DNA from: Escherichia coli
GTDB lineage: Bacteria > Pseudomonadota > Gammaproteobacteria > Enterobacterales > Enterobacteriaceae
NCBI RefSeq assembly: GCF_045037415.1
Contig: NZ_CP173438.1
Length of the DNA: 64,000 nucleotides
Direction: 5' to 3' (one strand)
The first letter of the stretch is position 1. Each line of letters opens with the position of its first letter. A program made the position numbers. This document shows positions 13,101 through 16,100 of the stretch, in pieces.

Positions 13101-16100
13101 CTGTTATATGGCGAATGACAGCAAAGGCCATTTTGTTACGGCGAAAGAAGCAGCGAAGCACAACCGCCAGGACGTTTTGTGCTGTGTGTCCTGTGGATGC
13201 CCGTTAACACTTCAGCGGGGCAATGACGGACAACCACCGTGGTTTGAACATGACCAGATGACTGTCGCTGAGAAAATCCTGCTGCGATGCACCTGGCTTG
13301 ACCCGGCAGAGAAAGAGGCCCGTCGTTTGCATCTGCAGGGTATGACGGTTCCGGATTATACGGTGAAGGTGAGAAAGTGGTTTTGTGTGATGTGTGACGA
13401 AGATTATGAAGGAGAAAAGTGCTGCCCGAGTTGTGGTACCGGGGTATACAGCAGGGAGGGGGGGCTGCAGGAAGGCAACTGGAAGGATAGGAACTGAGCG
13501 GTTCAGTCGCGGAAATCAGTTGTAGAGCTGTAATGATATCTCCGGGAGTGCTGCGTTGGTAGGGGCATCCCGGGATAGAGAAATTTTAGCACTTTGCCCT
13601 GAATGATTGTAGACGTCCCGGGTACTCGTACCGGTCTGAGTTATTACAGTTAGATATTCACTTTTTCTCCCGCATACTTCACATCTGTCAACGACGGATG
13701 AAAAGTGGTTCTTCCGCAACCTGGGTGGAAGAAAATGGATGAAACTTTCTGGCGAACAAGGATCTAAGCTGTTTTAAGTTATGGGCAACGCAATGCACTC
13801 TCTTAAGACACTTCTACAGTTACCTTGCGGATGGCGATGCAGTCGACAAATTATTAGCTCTGACGGTATAACCCTCCATCTCCACGGAAAACGCAAAACA
13901 GCACAATGTCCTGAATGCTTTAAGCGTAGCGACTCTGTTCATAGTTGTCGTCGGCGCCGGATACAGCATCTACCCTGCTCAGGGCAGACGCTATGGCTTG
14001 TATTTTCCGTCCGCCACTGGTACTGCCGTAACCCGGCTTGTTAACGTAAAATTTTTGCCGAGTCGCTTGCTCCCTTCGCCGGTTCACACCAGCAGTCTTC
14101 ACAGGCGTTACAAAATTTACAACGTCAACTGGGATTAATAGCTGGAGGTGAGGCTGGAAAACGGGCTGCAACGGCAGCGGGTCTCCGTTGCAGTGCTGAT
14201 ACTCTTCTTCGCAGGGTTATCAATACCCCGGAGACGAAACAGTCAGGCGCGCCTCATGTCGGTATTGATGAGTGGGCGTGGCATCGGGGCCACTGCTGCG
14301 GTATGTTAATAGTCAATCTTGATACTCACCGTCCCCTCGTCCTGCTTCCCGGCCGTGATCAGCGTACGCTGGCGACCTGGTTCAGAAAATATCCGGAAAT
14401 ACAGGTTGTCTCGCGTGATCGCAGTGGAGTCTATGCGACAGCAGCACGTGAAGGTGCACCTCAGGCCAGACAGGTGGCCGATCGATGGCACCTGCTAAAA
14501 AGTATTGGTGATGAGCCTGAACGAATGATGTACAGACATATGCCTCTGATACGTCTTGTTGTCAGAGAGTTATCACTGAAGAAATCACCTGAGCCAGAAA
14601 TATCTGTGCCTGTAGCATCGCTCCGTCGTCCGGAACGCCTTAAACAGCAAACCCGCAAAAAACGGCATCAGCATTGGACAGAGGTTATGGCCCTGCATAA
14701 CAAGGGATGTAGTTTCAGGGAAATATCCCGTATTACAGGCCTGTCGCGAGTGACAGTCAGTCGCTGGGTGCGTTCAGGAACATTCCCTGAAATGTCAACC
14801 CGGCCTCCAAAGCGAGGGCTTCTGGACCCATGGAGGGAGTGGTTAAAAGAGCAACGAGAAAGTGGTAATTATAATGCCAGCCGGATATGGCGGGAAATGG
14901 TGGCCCAGGGGGGGACAGGCAGTGAAACCATCGTCAGGGATACTGTTGCCAAATGGCGTAAAGGCTGGAACCCACCGGTTACTACTGCCGCAAGACTTCC
15001 TTCAGTGTCCCGGGTAAGCCGCTGGTTGATGCCCTGGAGAATAATCAGGGGCGAAGAAAATTATGCATCCCGATTTATTAGTCTGATGTGTGAAAAAGAA
15101 CCGGAGTTGAAAATAGCACAGCAACTGGTACTCGAGTTCTACCGTATTCTGAAAACCTAAAATAAATCACAGCTAAGCAGCTGGTTCACTCGAGTTCACG
15201 AAAGCGGCTCAGCAGAACTTCGGTGCGTAGCTGCGGGGATGGAAGCTGATGCTGCGGCTATATGTGAGGCAATCAGCAGTCGCTGGAGTAATGGTGTTGT
15301 CGAAGGTCATGTAAATCGCCTGAAGGTGCTGATACGCCAGATGTATGGTCGAGCCGGATTTGAACTACTTAGGCGGAGGGTAATGAGTCCACTGGCATGA
15401 AAATCTTCACCTAGGTTGCGGAAGAGCCACTTTTGCACTGTTCGTGACAGTATGGCCTTTATGTACTCACTTTGTTACCGGTAGCTGAATCATCACTACC
15501 GTGCTGCAAATGGTGGTGAACAGCATCAATTGTGGAATGAATGTTGCCGAAGCGACCAATGCGCCTCGTTTCCACCATCAGTGGTTGCCGGACTAGCTGC
15601 GTGTTGAAAAGGGTTTAGTCCGGATACGCTCAAGCTGCTGGAAGCAAAAGGTCAGAAAGTGGCGCTGAATGAGGCGATGGGCAGCACGCAAAGCATTATG
15701 GTTGGGTCGGATGGTGAGTTGTACGGCGCATCCGACTCGCGCTTGGTGGATGATTTAACGGCGGGGTATTAATTGACATCCCCCGGCGCAGTGTGCCGGG
15801 GGATAATGGTTTTATGCGGTCAATAATCGTCCGGGATTATCGATACAGAGTTTTTTGAGGATCGTTTTATCGACGCCGCGCTCCGCCAGATAGGCCAGAA
15901 AAACATCTGGAACAAATCCCCAGCCATTACCGCCATTTTTAGCCCACATTTGTTTAAGGAAGACATCGTGGCTGAGAACAAGCTGATCGGCGTATCCCAA
16001 CTCAATGAGATGAGCGACGGCATCGGCAGTCTCCTGCACCCCTGGCGCTATTCCCTCTTTCGGGAAGGTAATGTCTAGGCCAATCATGTCGAATTCCAGC

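Follow-up and report, generated by a model that had tools for sequence, protein, structure and literature searches.

A stretch of 64,000 nucleotides (nt) of the Escherichia coli chromosome (contig NZ_CP173438.1 of RefSeq assembly GCF_045037415.1; hereafter the window) holds, at positions 15474-15772 on the plus strand, the 3′ end of ggt, the gene for gamma-glutamyltranspeptidase (GGT). This remnant, hereafter ggt′, lies between a dead insertion sequence (IS) and a module of four genes that begins with a php-like (phosphotriesterase-family) gene. Our analysis indicates that it is very probably the inert tail of a second ggt, one of foreign lineage, which was carried in together with the php-like module. 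The remnant itself is an ordinary pseudogene and is already annotated as such in public RefSeq genomes: on the identical sequence of strain SK1144, the entry reads 'gamma-glutamyltransferase, frameshifted; internal stop; incomplete; missing N-terminus'.

The 3′ end of ggt and its lesions

The extent of ggt′ was determined by alignment to ggt of E. coli K-12, site-by-site comparison and translation in three frames. The homology covers codons 478-580 including the stop; it starts at position 15474 with codon 478 (GTTACCGGTAGC) and runs to the TAA at 15770-15772, which has the same frame and stop position as in K-12 ggt. Nucleotide identity to K-12 ggt was 92.2% over 295 nt. In a Pfam scan, the repaired peptide matched PF01019 with E = 1.1e-21, and the match was confined to profile positions 420-509 of 512. 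A first-pass annotation of the window had recognized a decaying ggt 3′ fragment beside an ISL3-family element, and both the K-12 alignment and the PF01019 match agree with it. The range assigned at that time, 15435-15803, does include the ggt homology, but its first 15 nt belong to the terminal repeat of the IS, and 15778-15804 form a non-coding hairpin. When the window was searched by tblastn, the sole GGT similarity was found at 15459-15769. As the first-pass annotation had stated, the 5′ part of ggt is absent to the left of the IS; nor was it detected anywhere else in the 64 kb.

Although ggt′ matches the family profile and E. coli ggt, it differs from the functional enzyme genes of PF01019 in every other respect considered. 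These genes encode a full-length precursor of approximately 580 aa with a signal peptide and a large subunit, while the homology in the window begins only at codon 478. Thr391, the first residue of the small subunit of E. coli GGT and its catalytic and autoprocessing nucleophile, is encoded upstream of this breakpoint and is missing as well. Finally, the remaining frame is interrupted by two nonsense codons, a 1-nt deletion and a 12-bp deletion.

The 12-bp deletion is in frame, is located at 15485/15486 and lies between two GGTAGC direct repeats. It removed four codons within 480-485 (GSPG or PGGS; the register is ambiguous owing to the repeat), and Gly483 is gone in either register. In the crystal structure of E. 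coli GGT, Gly483 and Gly484 reportedly form the oxyanion hole, and we take the remnant to lack at least one of these two residues. Directly after the deletion site, in the K-12 alignment, a TGA (15486-15488) stands at the position of Arg486, where other alleles have TGG. The second nonsense codon, TAG at 15594-15596, replaces Glu522; the alleles of D10, O103:H2, EC21Z-063 and contig L085 have GAG. The frameshift results from the loss of 1 nt in an A-run (15607-15610), which has four A instead of the five in K-12; it is common to the main E. coli alleles and absent from L085 and L093. All lesions are on the plus strand. The TAG, the 1-nt deletion and the short in-frame deletion had all been named in the first-pass annotation, the last of them lying 5′ of the peptide quoted there but still inside its range. 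The TGA had been overlooked.

In some genomes and metagenome contigs the remnant is itself interrupted at 15625-15635 (L090, L097 and L100; strains TW10690 and SCAID WND1-2022 (119)). L090 and L097 keep both halves of the remnant with an 11-nt overlap resembling a target duplication, and the insert in L090 carries IS66-family open reading frames (ORFs) of 141 aa and 537 aa.

The ISEc38-like element and the distribution of the junction

The IS to the left of ggt′ is a dead ISEc38-like element of the ISL3 family, 1764 bp in length, at 13686-15449 on the plus strand. It was identified by its similarity to intact plasmid copies of ISEc38 and by its inverted repeats. The match to the plasmid copies is gap-free, spans exactly 13686-15449 and shows 95.6% identity (77 mismatches); the terminal inverted repeats are imperfect, with arms at 13685-13727 and 15408-15450. 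Full-length similarity and inverted repeats thus place the element in ISEc38, while an intact ORF for the DDE transposase (539 aa) is lacking, since premature stops occur at codons 88 and 460 (14042-14044 and 15158-15160). RefSeq labels the copy in SK1144 'ISL3 family transposase, internal stop' (a coordinate in the SK1144 locus plus 3435 gives the window coordinate), and lists there the ISL3 pseudogene, the ggt pseudogene and a phosphotriesterase-related gene as neighbours.

The right end of the IS had been placed at about 15434 in the first-pass annotation and lies about 15 nt further right, at 15449. Nor does ggt begin immediately outside the IS repeat, as had been assumed: 24 nt (15450-15473) intervene, which match neither side. 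This filler, GTATGGCCTTTATGTACTCACTTT, is identical in all alleles examined, and no match to it was found in ISEc38, K-12 ggt, Citrobacter ggt or the other sequences compared.

Elements of the ISL3 family are flanked by an 8-bp target-site duplication. No such duplication was found around the IS in the window, where the flanking 8-mers differ (TTCACATC versus GTATGGCC). The reference plasmid copy of ISEc38 that we examined is likewise without an obvious 8-bp duplication, so that the missing duplication is weak evidence.

The junction consisting of IS, filler, ggt′ and php-like gene was present in 2523 of the 5426 complete E. coli genomes searched. A synthetic query from which the IS had been precisely removed found an IS-free site in none of them (0/5426). 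In the same set, the first 1431 nt of ggt were found at 5433 places in 5425 genomes, i.e., essentially once per genome, so that no second 5′ part was seen. A scan for DNA patterns yielded 14 metagenome contigs with the signature of the fragment lineage, and GGT similarity began at residue 477 in all of them. A protein search with the repaired peptide gave short fragments only, and nothing longer, let alone complete, from this lineage of ggt; some of these short matches are less-decayed alleles of the same remnant. A literature search returned nothing on the ISEc38-ggt′ junction. The fixed relic of ISEc38 may account for the frequent reports of this element in E. coli by mobile-element finders.

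One metagenome contig, L094 (positions 5282-10924), has the same right junction of IS, filler and ggt′, and carries to the left of the IS an ORF of 1371 aa for a putative SPATE-like autotransporter. The left 600 nt of its IS correspond to a different ISEc38 variant. Either two copies of the IS have recombined here or the contig was assembled as a chimera.

Lineage, synteny and order of decay

Genomes that carry the junction keep an intact native ggt at its usual place between ugpQ and yhhA, which answers the earlier suggestion to look for an intact copy elsewhere in the genome. We compared the last 312 nt of the fragment alleles with four diverse native E. coli ggt alleles and found 90.6-93.0% identity, while the four native alleles share 95-98% with one another. 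To ggt of Citrobacter and Salmonella, fragment and native alleles alike are ~81-84% identical. A neighbour-joining tree groups the fragment alleles as the sister lineage of the native ones. Relative to K-12 ggt, the remnant has 22 substitutions, 14 of them at third codon positions; 13 are synonymous and 9 non-synonymous. Because third-position and synonymous changes predominate, most of the divergence arose in a functional gene of another lineage.

The native E. coli ggt is itself unusually polymorphic (native loci L002, L104, L105 and L106 were inspected): in many genomes, the first 1431 nt of the gene match K-12 at only ~94% identity. The DNA just 3′ of the native gene is hypervariable: it holds yrhB-yrhD-IS1-yrhA (in K-12, yrhB), directly yhhY (AZ159) or a DUF4225 gene (O157). 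This hypervariability is in keeping with the loss, from the native site, of an ancestral arrangement in which ggt adjoined php.

The php-like gene (15812-16846, minus strand; PF02126) is the first gene of the module. It is followed on the same strand by genes for a DMT/YdcZ transporter, a GATase1-like protein and a DeoR-PfkB kinase/regulator (16849-19854; Pfam matches), and in the window the four genes look intact. Hairpin analysis identified a GC-rich, terminator-like hairpin of 12 pairs (15778-15804, plus strand) where ggt′ and the php-like gene converge. For a synteny scan, one genome per species was searched with the php-like protein, and then by tblastn with GGT. In three Citrobacter species (L004-L006) and in S. 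enterica subsp. diarizonae (L003), an intact ggt is convergent with the php-like gene at a distance of ~50 bp; a synteny comparison of this kind had been proposed in the first-pass annotation. The php-like product of the window is 86-88% identical (aa) to the orthologues beside these intact ggt genes. The Citrobacter and Salmonella loci are collinear with positions 15479-19949 of the window, from inside ggt through the DeoR-PfkB gene, at ~76% nucleotide identity, and have a GC-rich hairpin of other sequence at the same position. The three Citrobacter loci continue past ggt with yhhA and ugpQ. The collinearity of ggt′ with the php-like cluster, which is exactly that of the intact gene in Citrobacter and S. 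diarizonae, is most simply explained if the tail arrived with the module.

In EC21Z-063, D10 and O103:H2 PV16-126 (L087, L088 and L089), the annotation lists as pseudogenes those for the DMT transporter, the GATase and/or PfkB. In part of the species, decay extends to the whole php-like module.

Comparison of alleles revealed the order in which the lesions arose. The allele of the window is 100% identical in other genomes, including SK1144 (15436-15810) and Nissle 1917 (at least 15450-15750). In three alleles from other E. coli lineages (D10, O103:H2 PV16-126 and EC21Z-063), the truncation, the filler and both deletions (12 bp and 1 nt) are present as well, with TGG instead of TGA at codon 486 and GAG instead of TAG. 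Of these changes, the Logan contig L085 has the truncation, the 12-bp deletion and TGG and no others; the frameshift is absent and GAG is kept. In the metagenome contig L093, too, a single frame matches GGT along 104 aa of the fragment. With 41 gap openings over 7.4 kb, contig L086, which encodes P0018, looks error-prone; the frameshift variants of P0016, P0018 and P0019 were not used. Since the less-decayed alleles carry the truncation without the point lesions, the gene was inactivated by truncation first, followed by the frameshift and then by the nonsense codons. After the truncation, the 12-bp deletion and the change of Arg486 to Trp, found in every allele, represent the earliest step; the 1-nt frameshift of most alleles followed, and the changes from TGG to TGA and from GAG to TAG, seen only in the allele of the window, are the most recent ones. 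Between alleles, the remnant diverges by 0.9-1.5% and the dead IS by ~2%, compared to 0.4-0.7% for the neighbouring coding genes. These numbers are small, and the faster divergence of the remnant is consistent with relaxed constraint or neutral drift.

Origin of the remnant and comparison with known systems

Considering lineage and synteny together, we propose that ggt′ reached its island in E. coli, close to cobU and the asn-tRNA genes, at the margin of a ~4.5-kb chromosomal segment comprising ggt′, the hairpin and the php-like, DMT, GATase and DeoR/PfkB genes. In its original setting, ugpQ-yhhA-ggt would have faced the php-like cluster, an arrangement that is still intact in species of the Citrobacter freundii complex; the adjacency of ggt and php seen in S. 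enterica subsp. diarizonae would reflect the same setting. The lineage of the donor ggt would be the sister group of every native allele in E. coli. Loss of codons 1-477, and with them the signal peptide, the large subunit and Thr391, inactivated the gene, with the breakpoint 24 nt from the right end of the IS. The hairpin 3′ of the ggt′ stop might at most still terminate the convergent php-like operon. We infer the direction and the mechanism of capture, as well as the role of the IS, from these comparisons.

Several points weigh against this proposal. No donor with an intact ggt of exactly the fragment lineage was found among the loci of the genome collection that were scanned for GGT, and the distances and codon-position counts are based on only ~300 nt. 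The 24-nt filler leaves the cutting event unexplained. Because the 2523 genomes and 14 metagenome contigs all share the junction, the 5′ part may have been lost in the donor, on capture or in situ after arrival in E. coli, and these copies do not discriminate between uptake of a gene that was truncated beforehand and an early deletion within E. coli. That the remnant has no function is likewise inferred from its sequence, which leaves no room for a functional product.

The first-pass annotation had attributed the loss of the rest of ggt to a deletion mediated by the IS. In its full form, this explanation supposes that a complete second ggt was present in the E. coli island, that ISEc38 lay in or beside it, and that an IS-mediated adjacent deletion or recombination between two copies of ISEc38 removed the 5′ 1.4 kb together with the left side. 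Points in its favour are that the 8-mers flanking the IS are unlike, that the left flank is unrelated to ggt and that essentially none of the 5426 genomes has a second 5′ part; L094, if genuine, shows that the left side of the IS does get rearranged. However, ggt does not abut the terminus of the IS. Since an IS-adjacent deletion would leave ggt flush with that terminus, the 24 nt of foreign filler count against it, as do the foreign lineage of the gene and the collinearity of the module. Moreover, no genome or metagenome contig was found with a longer second ggt or an IS-free site, the missing duplication carries little weight given the plasmid copy of ISEc38, and L094 may be an assembly chimera. 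We therefore regard an IS-mediated deletion as possible but rather unlikely; the truncation could equally date to the donor or to the capture.

Could the retained tail be functional, as a small protein (e.g., from the 37-aa ORF at 15659-15772), a regulatory RNA or a selected 3′ element? It is kept in ~2500 genomes, and a strong hairpin follows its stop codon, with a hairpin at that position in other genera, too. On the other hand, no promoter-like site was found in 15300-16000, the lesions vary among alleles, the remnant diverges faster than its coding neighbours, the large insertion at 15625-15635 splits it in some genomes and contigs, and linkage to the php-like cluster explains its retention. 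A function of the tail is thus very improbable. We consider it highly unlikely, if slightly less so, that tail and hairpin are kept as a domesticated regulatory remnant, supplying a 3′-end or terminator element, or a derived small RNA, for the php-like operon. The conserved junction could then also serve as a molecular fossil by which to date the uptake of a ggt-php locus from an ancestral Escherichia into a mobile island.

It would also be conceivable that a partial copy of the cell's own native ggt was made and then decayed. Indeed, the remnant is nearer to E. coli ggt (~92%) than to ggt of Citrobacter or Salmonella (~81-83%). Nevertheless, the best native allele seen in our searches is only ~93% identical, the differences are mostly synonymous or at third positions, i.e., of the kind accumulated by a working gene, and the homology to the native locus ends at the stop codon. 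Furthermore, the 3′ flank is the php-like cluster, as in Citrobacter, and not yrhB, yhhY or the DUF4225 gene. An origin from the native gene is largely refuted by these observations, with hardly any probability left to it, and an intragenomic duplicate was rejected on the same grounds (identity of at most ~93%, mostly synonymous differences, different downstream flank). Three observations led us to reject simple insertion of the IS into an otherwise intact gene: the unlike 8-mers on its two sides, a left flank without relation to ggt, and the absence of an IS-free site from all 5426 genomes.

Just past the right end of the module lies a remnant of an IS66-family transposase gene (20050-20388, minus strand), recognized from the RefSeq annotation of the identical SK1144 sequence. 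A composite transposon was rejected, as the left end is formed by ISEc38 of the ISL3 family and the right end by this IS66-family remnant. Between the IS66 remnant and a yaiO-like gene, positions 20704-20773 form a perfect inverted repeat whose arms measure 31 nt and whose loop measures 8 nt. A gene of the inovirus-Gp2 family, followed by two zinc-ribbon genes, lies directly to the left of ISEc38. The first part of the window (1-13500) is an IS-rich mosaic, with a copy of IS100 between IS21-family remnants, an ISEc20 transposase gene and an Hha/YmoA remnant. Three tRNA-Asn genes are found within 34572-38880. Very large ORFs, one of them of 3127 aa, follow these genes at 39000-64000; judged by the size and order of the ORFs, this region presumably corresponds to the yersiniabactin high-pathogenicity island, and cobUST also appears to be present, with the mosaic island to the left of both.

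With regard to its significance, the junction is a textbook example of gene decay at the border of horizontally acquired DNA, where a remnant drifts neutrally beside the debris of an IS, and in the RefSeq genomes that we examined the NCBI pipeline already marks ggt and the adjoining ISL3 transposase gene as pseudogenes. The tail indicates that the source of the four-gene php-like cluster in E. coli was a chromosomal locus beside ggt, of the type retained by Citrobacter and S. diarizonae, in a sister lineage of E. coli, and the allele comparison yields a clean order of decay.

Compared with K-12 ggt (b3447; PF01019, an Ntn-hydrolase), the remnant is without signal peptide, large subunit and Thr391, and is placed in an island near cobU and the asn-tRNA genes, beside the php-like cluster, rather than at ugpQ-yhhA. 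With the arrangement in Citrobacter and S. diarizonae it shares gene order and orientation and the hairpin between the convergent stops. In the three Citrobacter loci, though, ggt is full length (580-581 aa) and has its native place between yhhA and the cluster, whereas the window retains only the tail, in an island and bounded by IS remnants. The IS has the 1764-bp length and the terminal inverted repeats of ISEc38 but differs from it by two premature stops, by the lack of matching 8-bp flanks and by its fixation at a single chromosomal site in ~46% of complete E. coli genomes. Relative to island-edge gene remnants in general, ggt′ is unusual only in its 24-nt filler and in the clue it gives to the donor locus.

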